Origin: Dehalococcoides mccartyi
GTDB lineage: Bacteria; Chloroflexota; Dehalococcoidia; GIF9; DYGU01
DNA length: 64,000 bases
Direction: 5' to 3'
Assembly (NCBI GenBank): GCA_020724525.1
Contig: DYGU01000006.1
Coordinates: forward strand, 13,210-77,209
The notes below the pieces were generated by a model. It was given only the letters and a program-made list of their open reading frames with translations. It was not told the DNA's origin and did not search any database. How positions within the stretch are numbered: the stretch's first letter is position 1; each line of letters begins with the position of its first letter. The position numbers were made by a program, and so were the translations under genes. Shown here piece after piece: positions 13,267 through 56,833 of this stretch.

Positions 13267-13539
13267 TTATTTCAACTTCTCCTCAATTTTAGTTAATCTT
13301 TCACCCATCCATTTTTGCCCTTCTCTCAGTTCCTTTAATTCGTCGCCCATCCTTCTCTGTTCATCACCCATCCTTCTTTGTTCCTCTTTCAGTTCTTTTA
13401 ATTCATCGTTTATCCGTCCTTGCCCCTCTATCAATCTCCCTAAAAGAAGAGAACCTCGAATCACAAAACCGAGAAGCACCCCGAGCAAAATAGCAATAAG
13501 ATTGAGTATACCCACTATAACCCACAAAACCAGTTCCAT
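13267..13539 (-). CDS. small single-pass membrane protein with a repetitive coiled-coil tail (paralog 1 of 4)
   Basis: 90 aa with an N-terminal hydrophobic helix (LVLWVIVGILNLIAILLGVLLGFVI). It is followed by decapeptide-like repeats (DELKELKEEQRRMGDEQRRMGDELKELREGQKWMGERL). Similar architecture occurs at 25879, 35515 and 56549. Confidence 0.5.
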   Translation of the reverse strand: MELVLWVIVGILNLIAILLGVLLGFVIRGSLLLGRLIEGQGRINDELKELKEEQRRMGDEQRRMGDELKELREGQKWMGERLTKIEEKLK

Positions 13540-13731
13540 TCTTTATAATCACCTCCAAATCTGTTCGTGGGGGGAACCTAAAAGTATTTCCCTCCTTCAG
13601 GAATAATCACGCTTTTCAAATGTTAGCGTGAAATCTTCAGTCAAAAACATGTCTTTTCCTGACTTTCCTATCTTTGATTTTCCCTCCTCAGTGATTATTT
13701 TATCGCAACTATCAAAAATAATTCTTTTAAA

Positions 13732-14988
13732 CTAAGTCCCTGCCTCCCAGCTCTGGAGGTATTTTTTCTGCTCATCAGTTAAAGAATCAATAGTTATATT
13801 CATGCTCATAAGCTTAAGCCTGCCTACTTCTGTGTCAATTTCCTCCGGCACCGGGTAGACTTTTGGCTCAAGCCTTTGTTGCCTTTTAGCCAGATATTCT
13901 ATACATAGAGCCTGGTTGGCAAAGCTCATATCCATAACACTCGCCGGGTGCCCTTCGGCAACAGCTAAATTGACAACCCTGCCTTCAGCTAAGAGATAAA
14001 GGCGTCGTTCATCTTCCAAAGTGTATTCGTCAACAAAGGGTCGTATTTGCCTTTTACTCTGTGCCAATTGCTCTAAACCCGGGATGTTTATTTCCACATT
14101 AAAGTGACCGGCATTTGCCAGAATAGCCCCGTCTTTCATTTCTCTAAGATGCTGTCCATCAATAACATTGGTATTGCCAGTAGCGGTGATGAAGACATCA
14201 CCCATTTTAGCTGCTTCTAACAGGGGCATAACCTGATAGCCATCCATTATAGCTTCCAGAGCGGCTATCGAGTTAACCTCAGCTATGATTACTCGCGCTC
14301 CTAAGCCTTGAGCCCGACGAGCCACACCCTTGCCGCACCAGCCATAGCCACAGACTACCACTTTCTTCCCTGCCCAGAGGATATTGGTTGCCCGAGTAAT
14401 GCCGTCTATAGTACTCTGACCGGTACCATAACGGTTATCGAAGAACCTCTTGGTGCGTGCCTCGTTTACGGCAATAATAGGATACTTTAATTTTCCATCT
14501 CTTTCCATATTCTTAAGCCGGATAACACCGGTTGTTGTTTCTTCTGTACCACCAATAACATTAGTTACAAGTTTGGGATGCTCCTTATGGAGGGTAGTCA
14601 CCAGGTCAGCACCATCATCCATAGTCAATCGGGGGTGATGCTTGAGAGTGGCTAAAATATGCTGATAATAGGTCTTACTGTCCTCACCTTTAGTGGCATA
14701 AGTAGGTATGCCATATTCCACTAAAGCTGAGGCAACATCATCCTTGGTACTCAAGGGATTTGCTGCGCACAGAACTACTTGAGCCCCCCCTTCTTTCAAG
14801 GTTAAGACCAGATTGGCGGTTTCAGTGGTAACGTGGAGACAAGCTGAAACAGGAATTCCTTTTAATGGTTTTTCTTGGGCAAAACGCTCCCTGATTCTAT
14901 TCAGGACAGGCATTTCCTGACTTGCCCAATCTATGCGAAGTTTGCCCTGGGGTGATAAGGACGGGTCTTTGATATCATAATTTGCCAT
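13732..14988 (-). CDS. ahcY: adenosylhomocysteinase
   Basis: 418 aa. A Rossmann NAD-binding GYGWCGKG motif is present, together with SAH hydrolase substrate-domain motifs. Confidence 0.9.
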
Positions 14989-16541
14989 TATTCCACCTTC
15001 TTTAAGATTAGCCCAATGATCTTAGACAATGACTGGGCAGTATCCACTATTATATGGCTTTCTGGGGGAAATTCTACCACCCGCTCAAAGTCTTGTTTCT
15101 GTGGCTCAAAAATCTCCCAGCGTCCATCAGAAATAGTTCCCTCCTTAAGTCTCTGTTCCAGACGCTTTTTAGCTATTTCTTCATCAAGAATACATTCAAT
15201 AACTAAAAAATCAGCGCCTATTTTATCAGCTATCTTCCTGGCTTGTAATCTGTCAGTCCTTTTCTTGAAGGAAGCATCCAGAATCACCGACTGCCCTTGA
15301 GACAGAAGTTTTTCAGCTTCAGCGAGCATCGCATCGTAAGTCCGGCGAGAAAAGTCTTCAGAATAGATGCCAGTCTTGAATTCATCAAAGCGATGTTCTG
15401 TTAAAGGAATACCGGCTAATTTTTTCCGTGTAACATCTGAGGAAATGATTACCAGTCCTAATCTCTGGCTTAAAGCTTGAGCCAGAGTGGTTTTACCTGT
15501 GCCCAAAAGTCCGGTAGTTATAAAAAGAAGCGGTCTTTGCCGTGTATAATGGTAAGCCAGGCCAAAATAGCCCTGGGCGACAGCTAATATTCTCTCCTTT
15601 TCCGTAGTTAGAATATAGGGGTCGTCCAGTTTAAAACTTTCTACCTTACCCCGGACATAGGCTCGATAACATTTATAGAAATTGAGGAGCTGAGTAAGCC
15701 CTTTATCCTGGCTCAATTGAATATAAGCGGTAATGAAGTGGTAGGATAGGTCAGCCCGAGCGTAATGGTCTAAGTCCATAGCCAAAAAAGCGATTTCAGA
15801 AGCTACGTCGCAGTACCGGAAGCGGTCGTTAAACTCAATGCAGTCATAAATAAAGATGCCGTTAGTAAAGCAGATATGAGCAGCATGAAGATCACCATGG
15901 CAGTCTCTTATTCGCTTTTGCTTGATCCGTTCCAGAAACAGAGAAGCATTTTTCTCCAGAAAGTTATCAGTATAGTGCTTAATATGGTGATATTTCTGAG
16001 GAGAAATAGAAATACCGATATACTTTTCCGTTTGGGTGAAGTTCTCATCGGTATTTTTCCTGACGGTGCTAACTTCGCCGAAAGCACTGACCTCCAGATT
16101 TGTTTTAGCTTTCTTATGGAAGATGGCTAATTTTTCGGCTACTTTGGTTACCATCTCTGGTGTTACCTGGCTAGCTTGAAGCAAGACATTCATCATCCTT
16201 TCTTGAGGTAACTGGCGCATCTTTATGGCATATTCTATGGCTTTTCCTTTACCCTCAAGGCAAATTTGCCCTTTTCCCTTAACAATGGGCACTACAGATA
16301 GATAAATTTCGGGACAAAGACGCCGATTTAACTTCACTTCTTGATGGCAGAAAAATCGGCGCTTTCCCAGGGTAGTGTAGTCCAGGTATCCAAGGTTGAC
16401 CGGTTTTTTCACCTTGTATACATAATCACCAGTCAGCAGAAGAAAGGACATTTGAGTTTGTATCAGGTCTACTTTTTTGGGGGTGTGGGGATAAGCCTGG
16501 GGATTGAGCAGGGCTTTGATTAAAGTGGGTAGCTCAGCCAT
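14988..16541 (-). CDS. bifunctional aminoglycoside-phosphotransferase-like kinase / P-loop ATPase fusion protein
   Basis: 517 aa. The N-terminal ~330 aa carry an APH-type catalytic loop ([12 protein letters not shown]). The C-terminal ~170 aa carry a Walker A motif ([14 protein letters not shown]). It shares one nucleotide with ahcY, suggesting translational coupling. Confidence 0.6.
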
Positions 16542-16556
16542 TGAAAGTTGTCTTTT

Positions 16557-17081
16557 TTAAATTGGCAGTCTGGGGCGACATTGACTGCAGAAAGTAGCTT
16601 GTTTCCAGTCAGTGTCAGCTAAGCAATTAGAAAAGCGCATAACACATTTTGAGTTGGAACAGTGGCGTAGACCAAAAGTGTGTCCCAGTTCATGCACCAT
16701 TTCCTTAAGGGCTCTTTCCAAAAATAAAGCCTTATCTGGTGGCAAGCCATAGAATTCCTGGCGCAAGCGACACAAGGAAATGATAGCCACCCCGGAATTA
16801 ATATCAGCTTCGCCAAAGACAAAATTAAGTCCCGGAGCATAGAGGTCAACATCGGCTATTCCGAGGAGCTTTTCTTCCTTTTCTTTACCCAGGGCATTAA
16901 GAGAAGACAAGAGAAATGAAGACTGATATTGCTTTCGCTTCGGGTCATAAGCTCGGTCAAGGTCACCAATTCCCGGCTTCATCTCCACCGGACAGCCAAA
17001 AACCGGCGCCAGTTTCTCCTTCAACTCCTCAAGGGGGTGATTATCAATAGTGCCCACAGGTCTAAGGGTTATTTTCATCAC
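16557..17081 (-). CDS. amzA: archaemetzincin-family zinc metallopeptidase
   Basis: 174 aa. The HELGHTFGLRHC...C...C..C zinc-binding signature defines archaemetzincins. Confidence 0.75.
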   Translation of the reverse strand: MMKITLRPVGTIDNHPLEELKEKLAPVFGCPVEMKPGIGDLDRAYDPKRKQYQSSFLLSSLNALGKEKEEKLLGIADVDLYAPGLNFVFGEADINSGVAIISLCRLRQEFYGLPPDKALFLERALKEMVHELGHTFGLRHCSNSKCVMRFSNCLADTDWKQATFCSQCRPRLPI

Positions 17082-18057
17082 TTAGCCAACGTCGCCTCGC
17101 TTCTAATAGACGCAAGCTCGCTATCTCTTTGTTAGATTTTCTCGAATAGTTAGCTTTCTTGGCTACTACAGACCTTTGTTTGGCTATTTTCTCCTTTAGC
17201 CAGGTTCTCAATTTACGAGCGTCTTCTCTAACGATAAACTCGATTTTATCCCCAGCCAAGGTAATTTGGTCATAATTTAGTTTTCTTTTTATGATGTCCA
17301 TTAATTCAACATCTATCTCATAGCCATAGCTGTTTCTGCCCAATATTCGTGCCATTTTGGTAGTAGTCCCCGAACCTAAAAAGGGATCAATCACTGTCTC
17401 TCCTACAAAGGAAAAAAGCTTTATTAGGCGATAGGGTATTTCCTCAGGGAAGGCTGCTATCCCTTCTTCAATCCTGCCTGGAATAGGTAACACGTTGGTA
17501 ATATCCCAAACAGTTAAATACCATTTATTCCCCTGATATTCGCCGACATCAAGACGAGAAGATTGCTTTACGTTCATATTAAGTTGCTTCAAGTAGTTGT
17601 AGTCGAATTTGCCCTTTTGGAAGATTAAGATGCTCTCCTGGATATTATCTGGGTAAAAATACATAGGGTAGGGGTGTTGAAGAACCACGCCACTTCTACG
17701 GCTTATTCGAGTATATCCTTCGGGCTTTCGCCAGACTATCTTGTCCCGGTATCGAAACCCGGCATCGATCATTATCCTCGTTATATCAGCCACCACAGGA
17801 TACTTTTCACCATTCACCAGCATATCATCAGTAACATAAGCTGCTACCCTACCAGGAGCCAACACCCTGTGAAGTTCTTTAGCCAAGGCTTTCAGTAAAT
17901 GAAGAAAATCTGCATAATCCATGAACAGGCCTGGATAATCAAAAGGGGCGTTATAGTAAGGTGGTGAAGTCACCATCAGATGCACAGTTTCATCCTCGAT
18001 TTCTTTCATACTCCGGCTGTCCCCGAAAATTAACTTATGCCATGAATTGACCATCAT
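17062..18057 (-). CDS. DNA methyltransferase, beta-class amino-MTase (SPPY motif IV suggests N4-cytosine)
   Basis: Motif IV VTSPPY lies upstream of motif I VIDPFLGSGTT. The start is placed at MMVNSWHKLIFGDS, which has a GGGGGT Shine-Dalgarno-like sequence 4 nt upstream. The track ORF extends to 18141. Confidence 0.75.
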   Translation of the reverse strand: MMVNSWHKLIFGDSRSMKEIEDETVHLMVTSPPYYNAPFDYPGLFMDYADFLHLLKALAKELHRVLAPGRVAAYVTDDMLVNGEKYPVVADITRIMIDAGFRYRDKIVWRKPEGYTRISRRSGVVLQHPYPMYFYPDNIQESILIFQKGKFDYNYLKQLNMNVKQSSRLDVGEYQGNKWYLTVWDITNVLPIPGRIEEGIAAFPEEIPYRLIKLFSFVGETVIDPFLGSGTTTKMARILGRNSYGYEIDVELMDIIKRKLNYDQITLAGDKIEFIVREDARKLRTWLKEKIAKQRSVVAKKANYSRKSNKEIASLRLLEARRRWLSDENNP

Positions 18058-18077
18058 TTTACCCCCATTATATTTTG

Positions 18078-18425
18078 TTAGTAGGCTCTCCATGTCAAAT
18101 TCCGCTTGCAATTTTTGCTTAATATACAATAACCTGAGCAACCGATTGGACTAGCAATTTCACAGTGCTCAATCTTTTCACATGAGTCACAGCTAATACC
18201 CATAAGGTTGTCCGGGCAACAACTGAAGCCGATGCGAAACGCACCGTGGTCAACCATTATGCAATCTTTACTCAACTTGCTTACTACATCTTGAATTAGT
18301 GGTCTCATATCTACGGCACTAATAACATTCCATCCTTCACCTTTGCCTTGTTTCCGTTCGTGAATTATCTCGGGAACCATACCTGTCCTTGAAAAAATCT
18401 TTCCTACGTGCCCATCTATGGGCAT
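18078..18425 (-). CDS. hypothetical Cys-rich protein (possible C-terminal half of a disrupted restriction-enzyme-like gene)
   Basis: 115 aa with a CC...C..C...C...C..C cluster. Its reading frame stays open upstream to 18470 in frame +1 relative to ORF 18464..19027. This suggests one gene broken by a frameshift. Confidence 0.3.
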   Translation of the reverse strand: MPIDGHVGKIFSRTGMVPEIIHERKQGKGEGWNVISAVDMRPLIQDVVSKLSKDCIMVDHGAFRIGFSCCPDNLMGISCDSCEKIEHCEIASPIGCSGYCILSKNCKRNLTWRAY

Positions 18426-18463
18426 TTTAAAACTCGACTTGCTCCATTTCCCTTCAGAGACAT

Positions 18464-19027: not shown

Positions 19028-19029
19028 GT

Positions 19030-19838: not shown

Positions 19839-20023
19839 AGCTATCTTTAATAATACTACAATTTTGTGGAGACTGGCAAAGGAGCCCCAGGTCTTCAGGC
19901 AATAAATTAAGGTAGTCAAGTGGTAATAAGAAAGATTGTTTATAAACTCCAACTTTTATATCTGAAGTTCATTTTACCTAAATACAAAATAAGGCATTGC
20001 TCAACACTCTCGTAGTAATAAGA

Positions 20024-20132
20024 GGTTGTTTACCAACGCTTGTCCACCACCCTGAACAAGGCAGAGAAACCCTCACCTACCCTCTCCCTTGAAGGGAGAG
20101 GGATAAGGTGAGGGTGACAAAATAAACACTCT
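20024..20132 (+). repeat. intergenic repeat family A, full copy (~110 bp) with a central 10-bp-stem hairpin
   Basis: The left part is gttgtttaccaacgcttgtccaccaccctgaacaaggcagagaaaccc. The centre is cctctcccttGaagggagagg, a perfect 10+10 palindrome. The right part is ataaggtgagggtgacaaaataaacactctc. Related copies lie at 20766, 26262 (reverse), 34267 (reverse), 4641 and 38270. Confidence 0.7.
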
Positions 20133-20530
20133 CAATAAACCGTTTTTAGCTGTCTTTTGAGTCCTTCCTGGCATTCGCGGCGAGATAGACTGGGAGTCCA
20201 GTTGCGACAGGCTGCCGGTCGGAAAGGATAAATGGTGCGTACGGCCTTTTCCTCCTGGTATTTCAGGAAAACACAGGCGTCACCCTGGCGACGTAAGAGA
20301 TAAGTCCCTGGCTTCAGGGGATATTCCTGGATATATTTCTGGTAGAATTCAAGTACAGGCATATTTAAGGCTCGGGCTATAGTGGCAATTTCACCTTCAT
20401 CAATGGGTGGTTGCCATTTAGTGCAGCAAGTGCCGCAGCAAAGGCAGGGAATAACTTGAGGCTCAATTCCCCCACGCTGCAAATCATATTCTATTTCTTT
20501 CCAGCTTATAGTGCGTAAAATTACTTTCAT
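20132..20530 (-). CDS. YkgJ-family Fe-S/zinc-chelating protein (CxxCxxCC motif)
   Basis: CLCCGTCC...C motif. The start is placed at the internal Met MKVILRT. Confidence 0.55.
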   Translation of the reverse strand: MKVILRTISWKEIEYDLQRGGIEPQVIPCLCCGTCCTKWQPPIDEGEIATIARALNMPVLEFYQKYIQEYPLKPGTYLLRRQGDACVFLKYQEEKAVRTIYPFRPAACRNWTPSLSRRECQEGLKRQLKTVY

Positions 20531-20543
20531 GGCTTTTGAGTGG

Positions 20544-20741
20544 TTAACTTTTTCTGTAAACCTCCACAAATCTCTTTAGGGAGCGGTCATAAGTCCTTTC
20601 TATTTCCGGAGGGAATAAGCAGCCGGGTAGTTGATTATATTTCCAGTGGTAAGAGAGACAGTCGCAGCACTTTCCCTTTCGTTCACAGGGCTCGTAAGTG
20701 CAGGTGCATTTAGCCTTGTTTATTTCCAACTGGCATTCCAT
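20544..20741 (-). CDS. small cysteine-rich protein (8 Cys in 65 aa)
   Basis: MECQLEINKAKCTCTYEPCERKGKCCDCLSYHWKY. It sits immediately upstream of, and is co-oriented with, the YkgJ-like gene. Confidence 0.4.
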   Translation of the reverse strand: MECQLEINKAKCTCTYEPCERKGKCCDCLSYHWKYNQLPGCLFPPEIERTYDRSLKRFVEVYRKS

Positions 20742-20765
20742 ACTTAACCTCCTGTATGAGCGATT

Positions 20766-20906
20766 GATTACCAATGCTTATCCACCATCCTGGGGGGTCA
20801 CCCTCCCTCTGACTCCCTCCCTTGACGGGAGGGAGTATCATTCCCCCCTACCCTCTCCCTTGAAGGGAGAGGAATAAGGTGAGGATGACAAAATAAAGAC
20901 TCTCAA
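20766..20906 (+). repeat. intergenic repeat family A copy with a duplicated hairpin module
   Basis: ttaccaatgcttatccaccatcctg is followed by ctccctcccttgacgggagggag, a second hairpin. That is followed by ccctctcccttgaagggagaggaataaggtgaggatgacaaaataaagactctc. Confidence 0.7.
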
Positions 20907-21934: not shown

Positions 21935-21940
21935 TCTCTC

Positions 21941-25699: not shown

Positions 25700-25769
25700 T
25701 CAAAACCTCCTCGTCTTGTAATTAAGCACGCTTACTCAACAAGATATTGTTCAGCAATTGTCCAGTTGT

Positions 25770-25850
25770 CATTGCGAGCGAAGGACACCCCACAAAAGTC
25801 GAAACCTTCCCTGCGGGTTGACGAGAGTGAATACATCAATGGAGAGAACA
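25770..25850. repeat. partial copy of intergenic repeat family B (gtcattgcgag... element)
   Basis: tgtcattgcgagcgaaggacaccccacaaaagtcgaaacc shares the gtcattgcgag and ccacaaaa modules with the 38118..38300 element. Confidence 0.45.
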
Positions 25851-25878: not shown

Positions 25879-26163
25879 TTAGCTCTTTTGGCTCATATTT
25901 GAAACAATCCTGGCTGTCTTTTCTGGGATTCTTTCAATCAGCTCGGCAATTTTGGCAGTCCTTTCATCCATTCTTTCAAGCAGTTTTACTACTTCCTGAT
26001 GTCTCAATTCTGCTCTTTCATCCATTTTGGCAATTCTTTCATCCAGGTGTAACATCCTTTCATCCATTTTGGCAATAGCTTGCCTCATCAATTTTCCATT
26101 ATTCCAGGCTAAATAAGCAATCACAATTGAAAGCAAGGTAATAGCAAACCCGAAGATTTCCAT
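25879..26163 (-). CDS. small single-pass membrane protein with coiled-coil repeats (paralog 2 of 4)
   Basis: 94 aa with an N-terminal TM helix (FGFAITLLSIVIAYLAW). It is followed by AKMDER-type repeats (QAIAKMDERMLHLDERIAKMDERAELRHQEVVKLLERMDERTAKIAELIERI). Confidence 0.5.
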   Translation of the reverse strand: MEIFGFAITLLSIVIAYLAWNNGKLMRQAIAKMDERMLHLDERIAKMDERAELRHQEVVKLLERMDERTAKIAELIERIPEKTARIVSNMSQKS

Positions 26164-26261
26164 TACATCCCCCTTTGTCTCTAATGTTAAATTTTTAGCT
26201 CCTATATCTTAACAATATCTTTATTTCAAGATTTGGTCAAGAGCCGAGGACATATTGAAAG

Positions 26262-26340
26262 ATTGTTTATTTTGTCACCCTTCCTCAGGAAGGGTTTCTC
26301 CGCCTTGTTCAGGATGGTGGATAAGCATTGGTAAACAACC
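26262..26340 (-). repeat. intergenic repeat family A copy (reverse orientation, variant hairpin ccttcctcaggaagg)
   Basis: ttgtttattttgtcaccc...gggtttctccgccttgttcaggatggtggataagcattggtaaacaa is the reverse complement of the 20024 copy, with a substituted palindrome. Confidence 0.65.
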
Positions 26341-26737
26341 GAGCCTTGTGGGCGAAGAATCTCTATAATTGAATTCCACGACGAAGATAGACTAATACCA
26401 CCTGAAAATTGTATTATAAATTTTGGGTCACTTGAAAACGGAGTTTTATACAGAATCAAAAGGGTTAGTTTAAAAATGTCGTCGCGAGGCTAAAGCCTCG
26501 CCCGAAGCGACCCTAAAGGGTTGCGCTACAAAAACTTGGGGGTGAAAGGCGTTTAGGGTGCTTAAAAATAAACCTGAAATCAAGATTAAACAACCCGCAG
26601 ATATTAAGGGGATTAGCTCCAACTCAGCTAACCCCCTTGGTAGGTTATTCTCCTAATATTTCAAGAAGCACCCTTTTTGCGCAGGGCTTGGCGCCGAGCT
26701 GATAACTTTGCCAGTTTCTGCTTGATAGAGTCTTCCA

Positions 26738-34238: not shown

Positions 34239-34266
34239 TTTCGCTAACCTTTCTAAAGTTATTAAA

Positions 34267-34340
34267 GAGAGTGTTTATTTTGTCACCCTCACCTTATTCC
34301 TCTCCCTTCAAGGGAGAGGGTAGGTGAGCGTTTCTCCACT
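34267..34340 (-). repeat. intergenic repeat family A copy (reverse orientation, truncated)
   Basis: gagagtgtttattttgtcaccctcaccttattcctctcccttcaagggagagggtaggtgagcg is the reverse complement of the hairpin core of the 20024 and 20766 copies. It lies between rpoN and the kinase gene. Confidence 0.65.
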
Positions 34341-34345: not shown

Positions 34346-35443
34346 TTATTTATTTGTCATTGCCAAGAGTCTCCTTTGTCGTGAGGATGGGATTTTTAGC
34401 TCTTTCCTGAGACTGGCTATAGTACGTCGGGACAGATATACGCCAAATTTCCTCTCCAGACTAACCTTTATTTTCTGGTCACTAAGAGGTTTTGCCTCTT
34501 GTTCAAGAATTTGCTTGAGCAACTCCTTTCGGAACTTCTTAGGGTTTGGGAAAAAGTCTTTAAGTGCTCTTTCGCCCCAGGGAGTTTCAAGACTTTTATT
34601 AGCGATAACTCGGCTGATAGTGCTTGGGGTTAAGCCAATTTTGGATGCCAGTTCCTTTTGACTGAAAGGCAACAACGCTTTTGGGTTGCCCGATTCAAAA
34701 AATGGAGTTTGCTTTTCAACAATGTTCTGTATTACCTGGTGTAAACTATTTTTCCGGCTATTTATTAACTCTAACTTTCGTAAGAGCTGCCTTATCTCTT
34801 TGACTTCGGTATTGTTGAAAACTCCGTCGTGGAGTAACTGTTCCAGCTTCATATAATCAACAACAAATTTACCTCGGGCATAAGCTGGGGAGAAGTAAGC
34901 AACAGATAACCCCTCAGTTCCCCTTTCTATTGCGGCAACTTTGGAATAATGTTTTCCTTTGTCTGAGATAGAAGAAGGGTGGTAGAACTCGGTGGCAATG
35001 GAAAATTCGTCAATAAGACTGTTTATTTTAGACACTTCTGAAACTTCCAGCTGACACTGGTGGGCAATTTCCTCAACAGTAATCCCGGGCTCCGGGTATA
35101 AGAAATATTGTTTGAAATTGTCTATACCCAGATTTCTGATTAGACCAACCAGTTCCTCTTTATTGGCGATCAAAGATTCCACATCAACCGAGCTTGGGGC
35201 GGCGACAATTTCCTCTTTAAGTTCATAAAAACGGCGAGAAAGATTGGCTTTTGGGAATCGTTGATAGTGAATTACCTTCTCTTGTTCCCGGAGGCGCTTA
35301 AATAGTGAGCTCTTTTCTACCCCAAAAATTAAATACTGGAACTCCACTTCCGACATTTCCAGCAAATTGGCCTGCTCTATTCGGAGAAAAAGTTTGAGTT
35401 CTTGTCTTGTTTCCAGAGATTGGGTTATGTTTGGATTTACCAC
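34346..35443 (-). CDS. rpoN: RNA polymerase sigma-54 factor (short form)
   Basis: 365 aa. The C-terminal RpoN box (YLSRRTIASLRKELKIPSSRQRR) and the HTH (ASKIGLTPSTISRVIANKS) are present. The Leu/Gln-rich N-terminal region I is short. The protein is shorter than typical RpoN (450-500 aa). Confidence 0.8.
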   Translation of the reverse strand: MVNPNITQSLETRQELKLFLRIEQANLLEMSEVEFQYLIFGVEKSSLFKRLREQEKVIHYQRFPKANLSRRFYELKEEIVAAPSSVDVESLIANKEELVGLIRNLGIDNFKQYFLYPEPGITVEEIAHQCQLEVSEVSKINSLIDEFSIATEFYHPSSISDKGKHYSKVAAIERGTEGLSVAYFSPAYARGKFVVDYMKLEQLLHDGVFNNTEVKEIRQLLRKLELINSRKNSLHQVIQNIVEKQTPFFESGNPKALLPFSQKELASKIGLTPSTISRVIANKSLETPWGERALKDFFPNPKKFRKELLKQILEQEAKPLSDQKIKVSLERKFGVYLSRRTIASLRKELKIPSSRQRRLLAMTNK

Positions 35444-35514: not shown

Positions 35515-35817
35515 CTATCCCCTCTGCAAGGATCGAGCTATCATCTCCTGACCTTCCTGGAGCCTTGTAAATCCTTCCTTGAGGTGCCTGGCTATTGACT
35601 GTTGCCCCTCACTAATCTCTTTTAGCCCGTCCATAAGCACTTTCTGTCCTTCCCTAATCTCTCTTAGCCCGTCCATAAGCGCTCTTTGCCCGTCAACAAG
35701 CGCTTTTTGCCCGTCCATAAGCAACCTCATATTGCGTCCATTTGCTCTCCAGATATAAGCAAGGATTACACCGAGAAAAGCCAGGGCTGCTCCTATCATT
35801 CCTGTGGCTATTTCCAT
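35515..35817 (-). CDS. small single-pass membrane protein with coiled-coil repeats (paralog 3 of 4)
   Basis: 100 aa with the TM helix MIGAALAFLGVILAYIW. It carries LMDGQ-type decapeptide repeats (LLMDGQKALVDGQRALMDGLREIREGQKVLMDGLKEISEGQQ). Confidence 0.5.
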   Translation of the reverse strand: MEIATGMIGAALAFLGVILAYIWRANGRNMRLLMDGQKALVDGQRALMDGLREIREGQKVLMDGLKEISEGQQSIARHLKEGFTRLQEGQEMIARSLQRG

Positions 35818-36006
35818 TTATGGTCTCCTTCTGATTTTTTCAAACTTCTCACCTGATAATATCCCCGTTTCCGATTTTAGTCAAGGAAGAATTTGAGATT
35901 GATTATTGCTGCCTGGTCAGTGGGCTCGGTCTCGTTATAACAGCCGGGGAGAGAGAAACATCCGAGTAATCGGTTCGGCAGACCCAGGCGGAAACGATTT
36001 TTATCC

Positions 36007-38117: not shown

Positions 38118-38300
38118 CCATTCTGTCATTGCGAGAGGCGTTAGCCCCGAAGCAATCCCAAGAGATTGCCGCGCTTCTTACACCCAGCCGAATCCTAGAT
38201 TCGGCTGGGAACCCGGTGTCGCCACAAAATCATAGATTTTGTGGGGTGTTCTTCGCTCGCAATGACGGGTAAGCATTAGTAAACATCTCTCTTGCAATGA
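38118..38300. repeat. intergenic repeat family B: MITE-like element with terminal inverted repeats (gtcattgcgag / ctcgcaatgac) and two internal hairpins
   Basis: gtcattgcgagaggcg...cagccgaatcCTAgattcggctg...ccacaaaatcATAgattttgtgg...ctcgcaatgac is followed by taagcattagtaaaca, a family A fragment. Partial relatives lie at 25770 and 26475. Confidence 0.6.
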
Positions 38301-45347: not shown

Positions 45348-45439
45348 AGTTTTGTCTTCAGGAATAGATTAGAGTTGAGAGGGACGTTATACTTTTTAGT
45401 GGGAAAGGTGAAGAACGTATGAATGAGGTATAATGGTTA

Positions 45440-45560
45440 ATAGATGTTTACTTTGACGGCAAATTCTGGTGCGCCCGCAGCATTGAGGTAATGTGTGATA
45501 GGGAGACATATTATGGACTTGAAACAGGTCAATTATTCTTTTCATTGCTCGGAGAAGTTG
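45440..45560 (+). pseudogene. degenerate duplicate of the hicB 5' region
   Basis: atgaatgaggtataatggttaatagatgtttactttgacggcaaattctggtgcgcccgcagcattgag parallels atgaataaggtataatggtttaaggaggttagctatgctggttaagatagaggtttactttgatggtgaattctggtgtggtcgtggcataggcgaagat at 47600 (VYFDG.FWC..G). Confidence 0.4.
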
Positions 45561-47526: not shown

Positions 47527-47635
47527 AAATTTGATTTAGGATTGCCACACTGGCACGGATGTGTGAGCTGATCAGAATAGGCTACCTAAGGCTAAGAATG
47601 TATGAATAAGGTATAATGGTTTAAGGAGGTTAGCT

Positions 47636-47848
47636 ATGCTGGTTAAGATAGAGGTTTACTTTGATGGTGAATTCTGGTGTGGTCGTGGCATAGGCGAAGA
47701 TATCTTTACCCAAGGCAAAAGTTTAGATGAATTACATGAGAACATCAAAGAAGCAGTAGCTGTCCATTATGGAGAACTGGACGAGCCTATTACCATCCTT
47801 ACGCTATCTGAGGTGAAACTGACCGGTGCCAAAGCTACCTCAGGTTAG
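47636..47848 (+). CDS. hicB: HicB-family antitoxin
   Basis: 70 aa protein MLVKIEVYFDGEFWCGRGIGEDIFTQGKSLDELHENIKEAVAVHYGE with the UPF0150/HicB fold signature. Confidence 0.7.
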   Translation: MLVKIEVYFDGEFWCGRGIGEDIFTQGKSLDELHENIKEAVAVHYGELDEPITILTLSEVKLTGAKATSG

Positions 47849-48068: not shown

Positions 48069-48169
48069 TGTGGTTGGAGGCGTATTTGGTCACACAAATA
48101 CCATAGCGCCCGAATTTGTGAACATTGACTTTCACCCTGTTATCTGGTAATTTAGCCACAAAGTAAATA

Positions 48170-48333
48170 ATGTTGTTGGGGTGCCCGAGGGTGACTGAGG
48201 GCTTAATTTGGTAGCAAGCCGGTGGGATTCCGGCGCAGTTCCGCTTGCTGTAACAGCCAGAACGCCAGCCCCGATAAACAAGACTGCCTCCGCGGAGTAA
48301 GGGGGTAGAGCTTATTTTTAAAAAGGCTCTTAA
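48170..48333 (+). promoter_or_regulatory. cobalamin (B12) riboswitch
   Basis: ggtgcccgagggtgactgagggcttaatttggtagcaagccggtgggattccggcgcagttccgcttgctgtaacagccagaacgccagcccc carries the conserved GGTGGAATTCC-like loop and GCGCAGTTCCGCTTGCTGTAA. The B12-box AGCCAGAACGCC is present. The region is nearly identical in core to the element at 57160. Confidence 0.75.
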
Positions 48334-48366: not shown

Positions 48367-48381
48367 TTAGTAATCGCCAAA

Positions 48382-49464: not shown

Positions 49465-49476
49465 AAAGGACTGTAG

Positions 49477-51217: not shown

Positions 51218-52310
51218 ACCAAAAATAACAGGGCTTAGGCCATGTCCTCATGGCGGCATTGACTATTTGGAGCTGGAGAGGTTAAAGATTTCTCCCGAAT
51301 CTGTAATTGATTTCAGCGTTAATTCAAATCCTTTTGGACCACCACCAGCAGTGACAAAGGCTTTAGCCGAAGTGGCTATTGACCGTTATCCTGATTCTGA
51401 GGCTATTGAACTGAGGCGAGCCTTAGCCACTAAATTAGGAGTGACTACAAACAATATCTTAGTAGGTAACGGCTCCATTGAGCTGGTCAGACTTGTGGCT
51501 CTGGCTTATCTCGAAAAAGGAGACTTAGTTCTTATTCCCCAACCTACCTTTGGCGAATATGAAGTTGCCTGCCGCCTTGCCGGTGCTCGATTGCTGAAAC
51601 CCTGGGCTGAGAGAGAGGTAAATTTTCGAATAAGGGTAGCTGGCCTTATTCACTTAATAAGACAGCATCAGCCTAAGGCTATTTTTTTAAGCAATCCCAA
51701 TAATCCTACCGGACAGTATCTCAGTAAAGAAGAGGTTGAGGAGCTGATCGACACAGCTAAAGACAGTCTGGTGGTAATAGACGAGGCTTATATAAACTTT
51801 GTGGATGATGGCTGGTGTTCTATAAATTTGATAAAGAAAGGTAATTTGCTTCTGTTACGGTCTATGACCAAGGACTATGCCCTGGCTGGGCTGCGTTTAG
51901 GTTATGTAGTAGCTGAAGAATCCATAATTTCCAGCTTGCGCCAAGTCCAATCTCCGTGGAGTGTCAATGTAGTAGCCCAGAGAGCGGGGCTTTTAGCTTT
52001 AAAGGAGGAAAGATATTTTGAGGCGTGCCGGAATGGAATCTGCGAAGCCCGGAATTTTCTGGTAACGGGGCTGACTTCCTTGGGTCTGCATCCATTACCG
52101 TCACAGTGTAATTTCTTTCTACTTGAAGTTGGTGGAGCTAAACAATTTCGGCAAGCGCTCTTGGAAAAAGGGATTCTGGTTCGTGATTGTACCTCTTTTG
52201 GTTTGCCTGAATACATTCGGTTAGCAGTGCAGACTTTGCCCCGGTGCCAGCGGCTGATTACGGTTATAAAGGAGTGTGGAATTTTATATAAATGTTGGCT
52301 AAGACATTAA
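51201..52310 (+). CDS. cobD: L-threonine-O-3-phosphate decarboxylase (class I/II aminotransferase fold, CobD/CobC type)
   Basis: 369 aa PLP-enzyme fold. The SMTKDYALAGLRLGY region provides the PLP lysine. It sits between cbiB and cobQ. Confidence 0.7.
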   Translation: MSSPLKPKITGLRPCPHGGIDYLELERLKISPESVIDFSVNSNPFGPPPAVTKALAEVAIDRYPDSEAIELRRALATKLGVTTNNILVGNGSIELVRLVALAYLEKGDLVLIPQPTFGEYEVACRLAGARLLKPWAEREVNFRIRVAGLIHLIRQHQPKAIFLSNPNNPTGQYLSKEEVEELIDTAKDSLVVIDEAYINFVDDGWCSINLIKKGNLLLLRSMTKDYALAGLRLGYVVAEESIISSLRQVQSPWSVNVVAQRAGLLALKEERYFEACRNGICEARNFLVTGLTSLGLHPLPSQCNFFLLEVGGAKQFRQALLEKGILVRDCTSFGLPEYIRLAVQTLPRCQRLITVIKECGILYKCWLRH

Positions 52311-53812
52311 TGGTCCAGGGCACGGCTTCGTTTGTGGGTAAAAGTGTTATAGTTGCCGCCTTATGTCGTATTTTTCGTCAGGATGGCTTTCGGGTTGCCC
52401 CATTTAAAGCCCAAAACATGGCTCTTAATTCTTATGTAACCAGGGAGGGTGGTGAAATCGGACGAGCCCAGGCAGTCCAGGCAGAAGCAGCCGGTATTGA
52501 GCCGACAGTGGATATGAACCCCATCCTCCTTAAACCTGAGACTGACTCCCGGTCACAGGTAGTTATTTTGGGTAAGGTAGCTAATAACCTCAAGGCTGAA
52601 GACTATTATCAATATACCCCCTACCTTCTAAAAATAGTTGAGGATTCCTTAGGCAGGTTACGGGCTAATTATGATATTGTGGTCATTGAAGGTGCCGGCA
52701 GCCCTGCCGAGATTAACTTAAAGAGACGGGAGATAGTCAATATGCGTCTTGCCCGCAGAGTCAGTGCCCCCGTTCTTCTGATAGGAGATATTGACCGAGG
52801 TGGTGTCTTTGCCTCCCTTGTGGGCACTCTCCGCTTACTCACCCCCAAGGAACGACGTTTAGTCAGGGGGCTCATTATTAATAAGTTTCGGGGCGACCCT
52901 AAATTGCTCAAACCAGGTCTAGAACTTCTGGAAAAATATACTGATAAACCGGTATTGGGAGTAATCCCTTATTTTCGCGGTATTACCATCGCCCAGGAGG
53001 ATTCCGTTTATTTAGAAGACAAAAACCAGGAATTCTTAATAAAAAAAGACGACTTGAATATAGCTATTATCCACTTGCCCCATATTTCTAATTATGATGA
53101 TTTCGACCCCCTTGAGGCTGAAGGTTGCCAAGTCAACTATATAAACAGTCCCCATCAGTTGATTAACCCGGATTTGATTATTTTACCGGGAACAAAGAGC
53201 ACTATTGCTGACCTGACTTTTCTGAAAGAGTCGGGCTTAGCCCAAGCTATTTTGGACTGTATAAAGGCGGGAACCCCAATGATAGGTATCTGTGGCGGCT
53301 ATCAAATGTTAGGAAAAAGCATCGCTGACCCTTATCATATAGGATCCCAATTGGAGGTAGCCTCCGGTTTAGGGATTCTTGAGGTCAATACTATTTTTGA
53401 CCGGAGAAAAAGAACAGTACAGGTAAAAGCTCAAGTAATTGGCGACAGTGGCTTACTCTCAGGATTGAAGGGTATGGAGGTCAGTGGCTATGAAATCTAT
53501 AAGGGGCAGACTATGTGGCAGGACTGTCCCCCAGCTTTCCAAGTTCTGGAAACACCCCAGGGAAAGGTAGACTATTTTGATGGGGCGATTGGTAACGACG
53601 GTTGGGTAATGGGTAGTTATCTTCATGGCTTATTCCATAATACTAATTTCACCCGAGGGTTATTGAATAAGTTACGACAAAGGCGGGGGCTGTCCCAAAG
53701 GACAGGAAGCTCATCCCTTAGCCGAGACGAGGAATATAATAGGTTAGCCCAAATAGTAAGACAGAATATTGATTTACCCCAAATTTACAGTATAGTTTTT
53801 GGAGGAGATTAA
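52292..53812 (+). CDS. cobQ: cobyric acid synthase
   Basis: 506 aa. The N-terminal DTB-synthetase-like P-loop domain is GTASFVGKS. The C-terminal GATase-1 domain is GICGGYQMLG...H. Confidence 0.85.
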   Translation: MLAKTLMVQGTASFVGKSVIVAALCRIFRQDGFRVAPFKAQNMALNSYVTREGGEIGRAQAVQAEAAGIEPTVDMNPILLKPETDSRSQVVILGKVANNLKAEDYYQYTPYLLKIVEDSLGRLRANYDIVVIEGAGSPAEINLKRREIVNMRLARRVSAPVLLIGDIDRGGVFASLVGTLRLLTPKERRLVRGLIINKFRGDPKLLKPGLELLEKYTDKPVLGVIPYFRGITIAQEDSVYLEDKNQEFLIKKDDLNIAIIHLPHISNYDDFDPLEAEGCQVNYINSPHQLINPDLIILPGTKSTIADLTFLKESGLAQAILDCIKAGTPMIGICGGYQMLGKSIADPYHIGSQLEVASGLGILEVNTIFDRRKRTVQVKAQVIGDSGLLSGLKGMEVSGYEIYKGQTMWQDCPPAFQVLETPQGKVDYFDGAIGNDGWVMGSYLHGLFHNTNFTRGLLNKLRQRRGLSQRTGSSSLSRDEEYNRLAQIVRQNIDLPQIYSIVFGGD

Positions 53813-54926
53813 CATGTCTGATTCTCTGGAGCGAATAATTAAGGCAATAAAGCCTCTTGATGAAGTTGCTATGGAAGCAGCCCGAAAACGCCAGGATAGC
53901 CTAACTAAGCCTCAGGGAAGTCTGGGTCGGCTGGAAGAACTATCTATCAAGACTGCTGGCATTAAAGCTGACCCTCTGCCTAAGCTCAAGCACAAGGCTA
54001 TCATTATCATGGTAGCCGACCATGGTGTGGTCGCTGAGAGCGTGAGTCTTTACCCCCAGGAGGTTACCCGACAGATGGTCCTTAATTTTCTTGAGGGTGG
54101 GGCGGGCATAAATGTTCTGGCAAGCCATGTCGGAGCTCGGGTAGTTATTGTGGATATGGGAGTAATTGGAGGTTTTCCACCACTCCCCGGGCTTGTATGT
54201 AAAATGATTGACTTTGGCACTAAAAATATGGCTAATGGACCAGCTATGTCCCGGGAACAAGCTTTAGACGCCCTTGAAGCTGGAATTAAAGTAGTTGAAG
54301 CTGAGATGGGCAAGGGACTTGATATTGTTGGTACTGGGGATATGGGCATCGGCAATACTACTGCCGCCAGTACTATTTGTGCTGCAATCACCGGGGAGCC
54401 AATAAAGAAGGTTACTGGACGGGGCACTGGCATTGGTGATAAACAGTTAGCCCATAAAATTGAAGTCATTAAGCGAGCTTTAGCCGTTAACCATCCTTCA
54501 GCCAGAGACCCCGTAGATGTTTTAGCCAAAGTTGGCGGCTTTGAAATTGGTGGTTTAGCCGGTGTCATTTTAGCCGCGGCTGCTTACCGCATTCCAGTAG
54601 TTATAGATGGCTTTATTTCCGGGGCTGCGGCTCTCATTGCTTCAGGACTATCACCCCGGGTAAAAGACTACCTCATTGCTGCCCACGTTTCGGCAGAGCC
54701 AGGACACGCCTTGCTCCTTAATTTCCTCGGCTTAAGACCTTTACTTAATCTGGAGATGCGTCTGGGGGAAGGGACTGGAGCTGCTTTAGGCATCTTCTTA
54801 GCTGAAGCCGCCACCAGGATTCTTACCGAAATGGCTACTTTTGCCGAAGCTGGTGTCTCAGAAGCCCAGCCAATTCCAGAAGATACTATCAAGAAATGGG
54901 GTCACCAAAAATCGCCGATTTTTTAG
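53799..54926 (+). CDS. cobT: nicotinate-nucleotide--dimethylbenzimidazole phosphoribosyltransferase
   Basis: 375 aa with CobT family motifs (GDMGIGNTTAASTI, GGFEIGGLAG). The start could be the Met at 53814. Confidence 0.85.
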   Translation: MEEINMSDSLERIIKAIKPLDEVAMEAARKRQDSLTKPQGSLGRLEELSIKTAGIKADPLPKLKHKAIIIMVADHGVVAESVSLYPQEVTRQMVLNFLEGGAGINVLASHVGARVVIVDMGVIGGFPPLPGLVCKMIDFGTKNMANGPAMSREQALDALEAGIKVVEAEMGKGLDIVGTGDMGIGNTTAASTICAAITGEPIKKVTGRGTGIGDKQLAHKIEVIKRALAVNHPSARDPVDVLAKVGGFEIGGLAGVILAAAAYRIPVVIDGFISGAAALIASGLSPRVKDYLIAAHVSAEPGHALLLNFLGLRPLLNLEMRLGEGTGAALGIFLAEAATRILTEMATFAEAGVSEAQPIPEDTIKKWGHQKSPIF

Positions 54927-54952
54927 GGGTAAAAGAAAGGTAGTAAGTAGTC

Positions 54953-55693
54953 TTGGGCTTTTGGGCTGCTGTCCGGTTTCTAACTATTTTCCCTACCCCA
55001 AAACGCTACAAAATAGAAGACAGGGAAATAGGTGCCTCCCTGACCTACTTTCCCCTAATAGGTTTAGGAATAGGAGCCATTCTAACAGGCTTGGACTATG
55101 GGTTAGGGTTATTGCTGCCCATGGCAGTGGTAAACGCCTTACTTATTTTAGTTCTGGCTATTGTCACCGGGGCTCTTCATCTTGACGGCTTCGTTGATAC
55201 CTGTGATGGTGTCATTAGCGGTAAAACGCCAGAAGAAAGGCTAACCATAATGAGAGACAGTCGCACTGGAGCCTTTGGAGTTATCGGAGCTTTTCTACTG
55301 CTACTGGTCAAATATGCTGCTTTAGTTTCTATCTCTGGGAAGTTAAGAATGCCTGCCCTCTTCCTTATGCCAGCTTTAGCCCGCTGGACTTTAGTTGGTG
55401 CTATTTTCTTTTTTCCTTATGCCAGAAGTTCAGGCATGGGGCTCCCTTTCAAACAAGGTGCTAGGAGAGTAAGGCTTATTCTGGCTACTGTCATAACTTT
55501 AGCTGCCTCCCTGGTTCTGCTAAAAGGGCTTGGACTGGTAATAATAATGTCTTTGGGGCTTATAATTTTGGGTATAGCCACCTACCTTCGTTCCCGGTTG
55601 GGAGGACTTACCGGCGATAGTTATGGGGCTATTAATGAAGCCTCCGAAGTAACCTTCTTAGTTTTACTAATCCTTTTTAGTCAGTGGCTATAA
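54953..55693 (+). CDS. cobS: cobalamin 5'-phosphate synthase (cobalamin synthase)
   Basis: 246 aa membrane protein with CobS motifs (LTIFP...DG.VD..DG). Confidence 0.85.
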   Translation: MGFWAAVRFLTIFPTPKRYKIEDREIGASLTYFPLIGLGIGAILTGLDYGLGLLLPMAVVNALLILVLAIVTGALHLDGFVDTCDGVISGKTPEERLTIMRDSRTGAFGVIGAFLLLLVKYAALVSISGKLRMPALFLMPALARWTLVGAIFFFPYARSSGMGLPFKQGARRVRLILATVITLAASLVLLKGLGLVIIMSLGLIILGIATYLRSRLGGLTGDSYGAINEASEVTFLVLLILFSQWL

Positions 55694-56265
55694 TGACTGA
55701 ACAGTTATTCTCTAAAAAGGTTACTTTTGTTCTCGGTGGGGCTCGCAGTGGCAAAAGTTATTTTGCCCAAAAGTTAGCCAGGAAACTGGGAAAAAAGGTG
55801 CTCTTTGTGGCTACCGCTGAGCCTCTGGATAAAGAGATGCAAGCCCGTATTGAGGAGCATAAGAAGTTGCGTCCTTCTTACTGGCGAACCCTTGAAATAG
55901 CCAGTGGCATAGCCGGGGAAATAGAGACTCAGTCTGGCGATGCCGAAGTAGTGGTTGTGGACTGCCTGACTCTGCTTGTTTCCAATATCGTGACCAAAAA
56001 CTCTGACTATAACCAGGCAGAAAAACGGGTGATAGCCGAAATTAATGAGCTCATTAACTGCCTGGACAGACTCAATGCCAGCTTTATTATTGTTTCCAAT
56101 GAAGTGGGGCTGGGCATAGTGCCCGAAAACGAGCTGGCACGCTTTTACCGCGACCTCTTAGGTAAAGTCAACCAGCTTATCAGCCAGAAAGCCGATGAAG
56201 TCTATTTCATGGTTGCCGGCATTCCACTGAAAATAAAAGGGGAGCCCTCACCAACCAAAAGTTGA
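55684..56265 (+). CDS. cobU: bifunctional adenosylcobinamide kinase / adenosylcobinamide-phosphate guanylyltransferase
   Basis: 193 aa. The P-loop GGARSGKS and the CobU family length are present. Confidence 0.85.
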   Translation: MAIMTEQLFSKKVTFVLGGARSGKSYFAQKLARKLGKKVLFVATAEPLDKEMQARIEEHKKLRPSYWRTLEIASGIAGEIETQSGDAEVVVVDCLTLLVSNIVTKNSDYNQAEKRVIAEINELINCLDRLNASFIIVSNEVGLGIVPENELARFYRDLLGKVNQLISQKADEVYFMVAGIPLKIKGEPSPTKS

Positions 56266-56289
56266 CAGTTACCTTCCTGGGCCTATAAT

Positions 56290-56441
56290 CACCCCTCTGC
56301 CTTTCGTAAATACAGTCTGTCTCTTCAATGAACCACTGCCGACCGACCTTTGTTCCTTTAATTCGACCTTTCCTGAGTAATCGCTGAAGCCATTGTTTGA
56401 CTTATCCCAAATCTTTTGGCTGCCTCTTTAGCGGTTATCAT
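56290..56441 (-). pseudogene. excisionase/HTH_17-family DNA-binding gene remnant with a 1-nt frameshift
   Basis: The minus strand reads ATG MITAKEAAKRFGISQT. The next frame continues WLQRLLRKGRIKGTKVGRQWFIEETDCIYERQRG. This is the typical excisionase motif (..VKEAA..LGVS..TIYRL...G.I...K.GR.W.I). Confidence 0.4.
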
Positions 56442-56548
56442 CTCACCCCGACCCTAATTATAACAAGACGCAAATATAAATAATCAATAGGATTTAAGAA
56501 AAAAGCCAACCTTAATCAGGTTGGCTCCAGAGCAAACCACAGTGTTAT

Positions 56549-56833
56549 TTAAGGTTGAGCTTTAAGGACTTGCCTTGTCTTTTCTGATTCTGAGACAACT
56601 AGCTGGGCCAGGTATTTTATAGCCTCAGCCATTTCTTTTCTTGCCTCACTCTGTCCTTGTTCTATTCTAATGAGTATTTCTCTTAGCTCTTTTCTTGTCT
56701 CGATATGTCCCTCTTCCATTCTGGTGAGAATTTTTCTTGTGTTTCTTCCATTTATTATGGCATAAACTGTAATGAATGCACCTAAAATGGTTGACATAGT
56801 CCCGGCTAAAGCCAATAGTTCCCAGAGACTCAT
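56549..56833 (-). CDS. small single-pass membrane protein with coiled-coil repeats (paralog 4 of 4)
   Basis: 94 aa with the TM helix LWELLALAGTMSTILGAFITVYAII. The helical repeats are TRMEEGHIETRKELREILIRIEQGQSEARKEMAEAIKYL. A bidirectional hairpin, agccaaccttaatcaggttggct, lies downstream. Confidence 0.5.
   Translation of the reverse strand: MSLWELLALAGTMSTILGAFITVYAIINGRNTRKILTRMEEGHIETRKELREILIRIEQGQSEARKEMAEAIKYLAQLVVSESEKTRQVLKAQP

Follow-up and report, generated by a model that had tools for sequence, protein, structure and literature searches.

PspB is a protein of about 74 amino acids (aa) with a single N-out transmembrane (TM) helix at its N-terminus and a cytoplasmic coiled-coil tail, and it transduces membrane stress signals. 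FacZ of Staphylococcus aureus, a DUF948 protein of about 18 kDa, is anchored by a TM helix at its N-terminus, with only a very short stretch left outside; a coiled coil follows in the cytoplasm close to the membrane, and the C-terminal tail is disordered and positively charged. Its predicted homo-oligomers (3- to 4-mers) would extend about 15 nm into the cytoplasm, it serves as a membrane-anchored adaptor that binds GpsB, and its conservation analysis centres on Firmicutes (PMC10914604). In Escherichia coli, the DUF883 proteins YqjD, ElaB, and YgaM are mostly helical, membrane-anchored, about 100 aa long, and encoded by several dispersed paralogs, and through their cytoplasmic domain they act as membrane tethers for the 50S ribosomal subunit (bioRxiv 10.1101/2024.08.16.608256). 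Here, we report four mini-genes (S1 to S4) in 64,000 nucleotides (nt) of Dehalococcoides mccartyi DNA (positions 13,210 to 77,209 of contig DYGU01000006.1; hereafter the window), together with the undescribed family of bitopic mini-proteins to which they belong, about 75 to 120 aa long and comprising about 300 clusters at 50% identity.

Coordinates are positions in the window, whose DNA is contained in the Joint Genome Institute (JGI) metagenome contig Ga0246236_1000096. The MetK encoded there shares 77 to 81% identity with proteins named as Dehalococcoidia or Chloroflexi, without any other phylum among its named best matches, and on these relatives the source was placed in an uncultured Dehalococcoidia. 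All four mini-genes lie on the minus strand, encode 90 to 100 aa, and were found exactly where the original prediction, made from the letters of the window, had placed them. E values in the list are those of the family hidden Markov model (HMM), and tandem arrays are those of Tandem Repeats Finder (TRF).

13267..13539, minus strand, S1 mini-gene, 90 aa (E 7e-17)
13459-13533, minus strand, S1 uncharged TM stretch, residues 3-27
13339-13383, S1 21-nt tandem array in the heptad stalk (TRF)
25879..26163, minus strand, S2 mini-gene, 94 aa (E 4e-24), identical to P0004
26095-26157, minus strand, S2 TM helix, residues 3-23, followed by W-N-N-G-K
26014-26076, S2 'AKMDERx' heptads, 21-nt array (TRF)
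35515..35817, minus strand, S3 mini-gene, 100 aa (E 1.5e-27)
35749-35811, minus strand, S3 TM helix, residues 3-23, followed by Y-I-W-R-A-N-G-R
35603-35723, S3 'LMDGQKA' heptads, 21/42-nt array (TRF)
56549..56833, minus strand, S4 mini-gene, 94 aa (E 6e-25), identical to P0007
56747-56818, minus strand, S4 uncharged TM stretch, residues 6-29, followed by I-N-G-R
56634-56738, S4 18-residue repeat, 54-nt array (TRF)

Each protein opens with a charge-free hydrophobic stretch of 21 to 25 residues, which bears out the single hydrophobic helix proposed for each start, and continues with a repetitive tail rich in E, R, K, and Q. Self-identity is maximal at lags of 7, 14, and 21 for S1 to S3 and at a lag of 18 for S4; by these lags and by TRF, the period is 7 or 18 residues rather than the 10 to 11 first read from the tails. 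The four arrays outscore all other tandem repeats between 13.2 and 57 kb (TRF). The C-terminal module of S2 is MDERTAKIAELIERIPEKTA, and the conserved tip of S4 is EARKEMAEAIKYLAQLVVSESEKTRQ. S1 is the most divergent member, lacking the N-G-R/K motif and ending in 'LTKIEEKLK', a third type of C-terminus.

Judged from their sequences, S1 to S4 are real protein-coding genes under purifying selection. All four have a good Shine-Dalgarno site 7 to 10 nt before the ATG (in S1, GGAGGTG at 9 nt). When the family HMM was run against a six-frame set of all window open reading frames (ORFs) of at least 40 aa, it matched S1 to S4 alone (E 7e-17 to 1.5e-27). An initial word-indexed search, with a profile built from seven sequences, returned 49 relatives of 74 to 116 aa; an exhaustive HMMER scan of 1.84 billion protein cluster representatives (50% identity) returned 297 at E ≤1e-3, of which 64 reach E ≤1e-10, and their lengths fall almost entirely within 48 to 160 aa. 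Members were distributed over Chloroflexota, Acidobacteriota, Desulfobacterota, and other metagenome-assembled genomes (MAGs), with named matches that include Terriglobia, Acidobacteria, and one Paceibacterales MAG, and S4-type genes were detected in Acidobacteriota and Syntrophaceae MAGs. The contigs and genomes that carry them span 42% to 65% GC, so what is conserved is the protein and not low-complexity DNA. S4 and its paralog P0009 are separated by 0.69 synonymous (dS) and 0.062 nonsynonymous (dN) substitutions per site (dN/dS, 0.09), and the segments best conserved are the TM helix and the tip, both outside the repeats.

These results bear on the alternative that the four ORFs are spurious, a by-product of tandem repeats in low-complexity DNA. 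It could draw on the strong arrays within the ORFs, on the other assemblies that break inside or beside S1, S3, P0009, and P0021, and on the absence of the exact S1 and S3 sequences from the large protein collection, but it is contradicted by the dN/dS of 0.09 at a dS of 0.69, by 297 homologous clusters that keep one architecture over different phyla and a GC range of 42 to 65%, by the Shine-Dalgarno sites and promoters, by the superior conservation of TM helix and tip, and by another assembly that carries a gene call for the identical 90-aa S1. The original prediction was to fall if the frames were not conserved in related genomes; they proved to be conserved in other genomes and under purifying selection, and, on this conservation pattern, the idea of spurious ORFs is already refuted and is left with almost no weight.

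A weak match (E 1e-5, local HMM search) was also recorded in Ammoniphilus sp. YIM 78166 (L013 4953-5288), where a 111-aa protein without a TM helix combines 'LEEGQHETRKAF'-type repeats with 'KEMAEAI'. It may be a soluble stalk relative or else a chance coiled-coil match.

S1 to S4 are paralogous, because one profile scores all four, natural chimeras join their subtypes, and motifs are held in common. With library scans staying below threshold, this supports the view, already taken from the window alone, of tiny, membrane-tethered coiled-coil proteins that make up a dispersed family of paralogs and have no assigned function. The post-TM N-G-R/K is common to S2, S3, and S4, and S1 is tied to them by its 'TKIEEKL' C-terminal module, which is found in other members. 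Three N-terminal types were distinguished (MEIFGFAIT...W-NNGK; MEIA-G-VGAALA-LG-ILAYIWRANGR; MSFWE...ILGVF-T-Y--INNR), along with at least three C-terminal modules (...EMAEAIKYLA-LIVSEGEKTRQ; ...MDERTAKIAELIERIPEKTA; ...QTKILEKIE-K), and these are variously recombined in P0019, P0022, P0069, P0072, P0076, and P0083. In P0019 and P0022 an S2-type N-terminus is joined to an S4-type C-terminus, and in P0069 and P0072 an S3-type N-terminus is joined to an S4-type C-terminus. Repeat number varies among near-identical genes, as in S4 versus P0009 (21 extra residues), L031 versus L037, and L029 versus L033.

Similarity between paralogs begins about 90 to 100 nt upstream, just before the -35 box, and stops at the stop codon. 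The expression signals concerned are as follows.

26212..26240, minus strand, S2 sigma-70-like promoter match, TTGACC-17-TATTGT (9/12, a consensus match only)
35856..35905, minus strand, S3 promoter region, with a putative TTGACT-17-TATTAT at 35856-35884; upstream limit of the unit shared with L028
56834..56934, minus strand, S4 promoter and 5' leader, with a putative TTGACA-17-TAAACT at 56898-56926; conserved with the coding sequence in paralogs
56502..56528, minus strand, S4 intrinsic terminator, with an 11-bp stem, 5 G-C pairs, and a T-run (z-score -3.8; 0 of 200 shuffles fold as well)

S4 and P0009 are alike (71% identity) from position 56934, just upstream of the -35 box, to the stop codon at 56550, where the similarity ends. 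P0022 shares with S4 a 64-nt promoter (94% identical) and the last 119 nt of the coding sequence and has a different N-terminus. L028, a second S3-type copy, is 96% identical over 35701-35905 (promoter and 5' coding sequence), with unrelated DNA upstream. From these boundaries in S4, P0009, and P0022 and in S3 and L028, the duplicated unit is promoter plus leader plus coding sequence. No terminal repeats or target duplications were found at the cassette boundaries, nor was any upstream motif common to all four genes, promoter conservation being subtype-specific only. The contigs of P0009 and P0022, with tetranucleotide correlations to the window of 0.96 and 0.90, come from the same metagenome, so the population holds at least six or seven paralogs. 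Contigs often end inside family genes, which indicates that the family repeats break short-read assemblies. Tandem or double family genes on one short contig were observed in an Acidobacteriota MAG and a JGI metagenome contig (L009, 4950-5465 and 5526-5651; L036, 837-1133 and 2721-2908).

The terminator of S4 is not common to its paralogs, and the downstream folds of S1 and S3 were no better than those of shuffles. A convincing terminator was found for S4 only, and transcription of S1 and S3 may continue into metK and rpoN, which follow on the same strand at 54 and 71 nt. The early description of the mini-genes as monocistronic and flanked by hairpins stands only for S4.

Members share one build: an acidic N-terminus of 2 to 5 residues without K or R, one TM helix, a nearly invariant Asn-(Gly/Asn)-(Arg/Lys), a repeat stalk, and a conserved C-terminal module. 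Among 180 short members, the TM helix is N-terminal in 166 and N[GN][RK] follows it directly in about 150; the post-TM Asn is the sole nearly invariant column family-wide. AlphaFold2 modelled S3 as a single helix over residues 2-99 (a predicted local-distance difference test score [pLDDT] of 93.5) and S4 as a single uninterrupted helix over residues 3-92 (pLDDT, 84), and in both the helix extends, at high confidence, to the final turn. Such a helix is predicted to consist of a membrane span of roughly 3 nm and a rod of about 10 nm (roughly 70 residues). We regard this structural and genetic description of the family as very probably correct.

Topology was judged from charge statistics over 181 members. 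A median of 2 residues precede the TM helix, and this segment carries on average 0.06 K/R and 0.88 D/E, with no K/R at all in 97% of members; the 15 residues after the helix carry a mean of 3.7 K/R, and the count after exceeds the count before in 99%. The tail is 35% E+R+K and 0.6% Pro. Under the positive-inside rule, this charge distribution points to an N-out/C-in anchor with a rod that is predicted to lie in the cytoplasm. The same strong signal, with the lack of a signal-peptide n-region or cleavage site and of any match to the FtsB/DivIC-type profile, makes the opposite arrangement very unlikely, namely an N-in/C-out extracytoplasmic rod serving as a surface fibril or spacer whose repeat number is under phage or environmental selection, even though variable repeat numbers are typical of surface proteins and the single membrane of Dehalococcoidia would leave an exported rod exposed. 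FtsB, DivIC, and FtsL are N-in/C-out and single copy per genome; identity with them was rejected, as the mini-proteins have no PF04977-type match, the opposite predicted topology, and at least 6 to 7 copies in the population.

The heptad of S2 is canonical (I-A-K-M-D-E-R, with I at a and M at d). S1 and S3 have Gln at one core position of each heptad, preceded by Gly or Glu (e.g., L-M-D-G-Q-K-A), and a coiled coil with many polar layers is therefore predicted. In an alignment of 18 S4-type sequences, invariant residues cluster in the tip (G60, R65, E67, M68, E70, A71, I72, K73, Y74, L78, T86, and R87); by heptad assignment, G60, R65, E67, E70, K73, and Y74 would lie off the core, which suggests an interface with something besides the helix's own partner strands.

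Invariant exposed residues at the C-terminus, together with the invariant juxtamembrane motif, argue for specific contacts, and they weaken the case for stress protection of the YtxH/LEA kind, in which an amphipathic repeat helix would cover or stabilise membrane or proteins during stress, with no single specific partner. That role would suit the repetitive, charged helical tail (E+R+K, 35%), the 18-residue (7+11) repeat of S4, the presence of several paralogs per genome, and the free variation in repeat number, which suggests that exact length is not critical. We nonetheless consider it improbable, given also that the 3-4 hydrophobic spacing of S1 to S3 is that of a coiled coil and not of an 11-mer lipid-binding helix, and that the member scans returned no YtxH or LEA Pfam signal.

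Pfam and NCBIfam scans of the four proteins gave no match at threshold, scans of PHROGs and PADLOC gave weak coiled-coil-type matches only (nothing convincing in PADLOC), and a PDB profile search returned designed and generic coiled coils only. In that search, the family profile matched best, by sequence, alpha-helical barrels and bundles designed de novo (CC-Type2, sc-apCC) with 'KEIAxxx'-type heptads; these are synthetic peptides, and the match is compositional, showing only that the stalk is coiled-coil-like. Individual Pfam scans of 178 members, in sets of 47 and 131, returned a single recurrent family, DUF948 (PF06103), which was matched, at scores far below the gathering cut-off, by 16 members at E ≤0.01 (4 and 12 in the two sets; best E, 1.1e-4). 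Among the window proteins, S2 matched it at E 0.16 and 12.6 bits (gathering score, 37.2), and S1, S3, and S4 did not match.

The mini-proteins thus resemble FacZ in TM and coiled-coil architecture and in predicted topology (N-out/C-in), but they are shorter and, by AlphaFold2, helical to the end, where FacZ has a disordered, basic tail, and their genes are multi-copy, variably present, and variable in repeat number. PspB has the same architecture as the mini-proteins but is not a multi-copy, repeat-variable family; PF06667 (PspB) was matched in none of the Pfam scans, and no pspA or pspC neighbours occur at the examined loci. YqjD, ElaB, and YgaM have a C-terminal tail anchor, of which the N-terminal anchor of the mini-proteins is the mirror image, and DUF883 was not matched in Pfam scans of S1 to S4 and the 178 members. 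By analogy, FacZ and PspB, the closest characterised architectural counterparts, would fit the division or envelope scaffold and membrane stress sensor roles suggested at the outset.

We propose that each mini-protein acts as a variable-length membrane tether or adaptor, like FacZ and PspB and, in mirror image, YqjD/ElaB/YgaM. Its anchors would associate via the interfacial Asn and small-residue motifs, its rods would assemble in parallel into coiled-coil oligomers whose core has many polar (Gln) layers, and its conserved tip, including the solvent-exposed invariant residues, would recruit a cytosolic partner to the membrane. Diversity would arise as promoter-plus-gene units are duplicated into intergenic sites, through heptad slippage, and through recombination between paralogs. 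Taken as a whole, an undescribed bitopic family that works as an oligomeric cytoplasmic tether or adaptor is our best explanation, plausible but held with some reserve; the tether mechanism specifically, which is drawn by analogy, is offered more tentatively still. Several points weigh against it. The tether or adaptor role is argued from architecture and analogy only, and the topology is itself predicted. The faint similarity to DUF948 could reflect composition, and with Gly in many heptads and Gln at core positions the coiled coil would be weak. The best-conserved tip, 'LIVSEGEKTR', is missing from S1 and S3. Gene neighbourhoods compared over about a dozen loci contained no conserved neighbour gene, so that no partner is indicated. 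A bolder version of the tether proposal, which we judge unlikely, is a combinatorial set in which hetero-oligomers with weak Gln-layer cores and interchangeable tips would recruit a major cytosolic machine, e.g., ribosomes; this would be the mirror-image counterpart of YqjD/ElaB/YgaM in phyla without DUF883, and its diversity would come from self-copying promoter-plus-gene cassettes, heptad slippage, and module shuffling.

What is new is the family itself, plus an unusual and well-documented mode of diversification; the architectural kind is known, and no new principle is involved. Small membrane proteins are systematically under-annotated, and the roughly 300 clusters found here have no Pfam or NCBIfam model. 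They can be annotated by a signature of an acidic 2-residue N-terminus, a TM helix, N-G/N-R/K, a heptad stalk, and an 'A-x-L-I-x-x-E-x-E-K-T-R' tip, and their repeats account for assembly breaks at such loci in uncultured Dehalococcoidia and Acidobacteriota. If the tether proposal is true, the family would provide a natural series of rods of differing lengths with swappable tips, and a test system for membrane protein organisation in bacteria without known FacZ, PspB, or YqjD homologues.

Within the window, S1 lies between ahcY and metK, S2 is next to NuoE/F-like genes and an adenine deaminase gene, S3 is next to an MvhD/FlpD gene and a short sigma-54-like (rpoN-like) gene, and S4 is next to cobS and cobU, followed by a gene for a BtuF-like binding protein; the blocks named at first beside the four (metK, ade, rpoN, and cobU) were thereby recovered. 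Across the compared loci, neighbours include housekeeping enzymes, RecA, CarB, a peptidase M16, a PIN protein, a major facilitator superfamily transporter, integrases with a HEPN/nucleotidyltransferase (MNT) pair, and multihaem cytochromes. The ahcY-metK junction (13213-13731) is variable; it holds S1 here, 25 nt in L024 (2476-2500; MetK 86% identical), and an unrelated 396-aa gene in L023 (1298-2488; MetK 89% identical). The 396-aa protein has a CxxC motif and one TM helix and is without Pfam matches. The 'rpoN' gene (34346-35443, minus strand) encodes only 365 aa, and its sole Pfam match is the Sigma54_DBD domain; the activator-interacting and core-binding domains are absent from the Pfam matches listed at E ≤1e-5, and the product may be a short or divergent sigma-54. 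P0022 occurs in an island (L016/L017 1-5063) with two phage-integrase genes and a HEPN/MNT toxin-antitoxin pair. P0037 is followed, 53 nt downstream, by a retropepsin-like gene (gag-asp_proteas/Asp_protease_2, 125 aa; L021 4299-4676; L022 638-1015), and comparable genes for small aspartyl proteases are found about 5.5 kb away from P0009 (L003 7057-7501); the presence of these genes near P0037 and P0009 may be coincidental.

One further feature was found just downstream of S4, and it may be the scar of a mobile element.

56230-56441, minus strand, frameshifted excisionase-type helix-turn-helix pseudogene (HTH_17, E 6e-12 after one frameshift was repaired)

A perfect sigma-70 consensus (TTGACA-16-TATAAT, 12/12) at 56262-56289 (plus strand) overlaps the cobU stop codon and is directed antisense into this pseudogene and S4; no plus-strand ORF lies between it and the riboswitch promoter at 57102-57129.

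XhlA, Rz-type i-spanins, and small holins are similar to the mini-proteins in having one TM helix and a coiled coil in about 90 to 150 aa. S1 gave weak matches to XhlA (E 0.009, 16.6 bits against a cut-off of 34.7; S1 only) and to phrog_739 (E 0.014), and all PHROG lysis-family matches were at E ≥0.005. IMG/VR pattern scans, one for the S4 type and one for the S3 type, and tblastn against plasmids and GenBank phages found no viral or plasmid relatives. Identity as phage lysis proteins was rejected on these scores, which lie below the cut-offs, on the absence of prophage or lysis-cassette context, and on the lack of viral relatives. Type I toxins are hydrophobic peptides under about 60 aa that are paired with a conserved, overlapping antisense RNA; this identity was likewise rejected for proteins of 90 to 100 aa with a conserved soluble domain. 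Antisense promoter-like sites, and with them a possible antisense RNA, were confined to S2 and S4, and S3 had none.

A more general form of this idea is that the genes are self-contained, membrane-perturbing cassettes (holin-, XhlA-, or type-I-toxin-like), in which the TM helices would oligomerise into a pore or disturb the bilayer, gated or regulated by the cytoplasmic coil, with selfish or defence-related spread. In its favour, the genes are multi-copy and dispersed, promoter and gene are duplicated jointly, and presence varies between close relatives; the setting of P0022 beside integrases and HEPN/MNT and of S4 beside the frameshifted excisionase-type gene is in keeping with this, as are the weak matches to XhlA, Rz-like spanin, and holin profiles and the antisense promoter-like sites at S4 and S2. 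However, no antitoxin-like partner ORF lies beside the four window genes or most members examined, no antisense promoter recurs consistently over the four genes, and most copies have housekeeping genes around them and a near-consensus promoter in front. The length of 75 to 120 aa with a conserved soluble tip is unlike that of type I toxins (<60 aa), the lysis-family matches are far below threshold, the IMG/VR pattern scans and the GenBank phage and plasmid searches gave no relatives, and PADLOC gave nothing convincing. We therefore consider a membrane-perturbing role unlikely.

Further features of the window are two riboswitches and three families of dispersed intergenic repeats.

48163-48287, plus strand, cobalamin riboswitch RF00174 (31.5 bits), upstream of a cobalamin-biosynthesis operon
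57144-57269, plus strand, cobalamin riboswitch RF00174 (44 bits), upstream of the BtuF-like binding-protein gene
4614-4690, 20003-20073, 20741-20792, and 26285-26341, dispersed intergenic repeats, family one
20064-20138, 20847-20906, and 34262-34336, dispersed intergenic repeats, family two
25768-25797 and 38237-38266, dispersed intergenic repeats, family three

The two riboswitches constitute a 142-nt 'repeat' pair (81% identical). The three intergenic families resemble repetitive extragenic palindromes or miniature inverted-repeat transposable elements (30 to 75 nt, 77 to 97% identical, both orientations), and one holds the palindrome CCCTCTCCCTTGAAGGGAGAGGG. Of the flanking repeat elements that had been described at two mini-genes, those at S2 are indeed dispersed intergenic repeats, while the 'repeat' at S4 is the cobalamin riboswitch of the next operon. 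No specific association of the mini-genes with the repeat families was found, as the intergenic repeats also occur far from any mini-gene. Finally, a 51-nt direct repeat (78% identical; 45405-45455 and 47588-47638) includes 'GGTATAATGG' and terminates at an ATG, and two genes may share it as promoter or leader.

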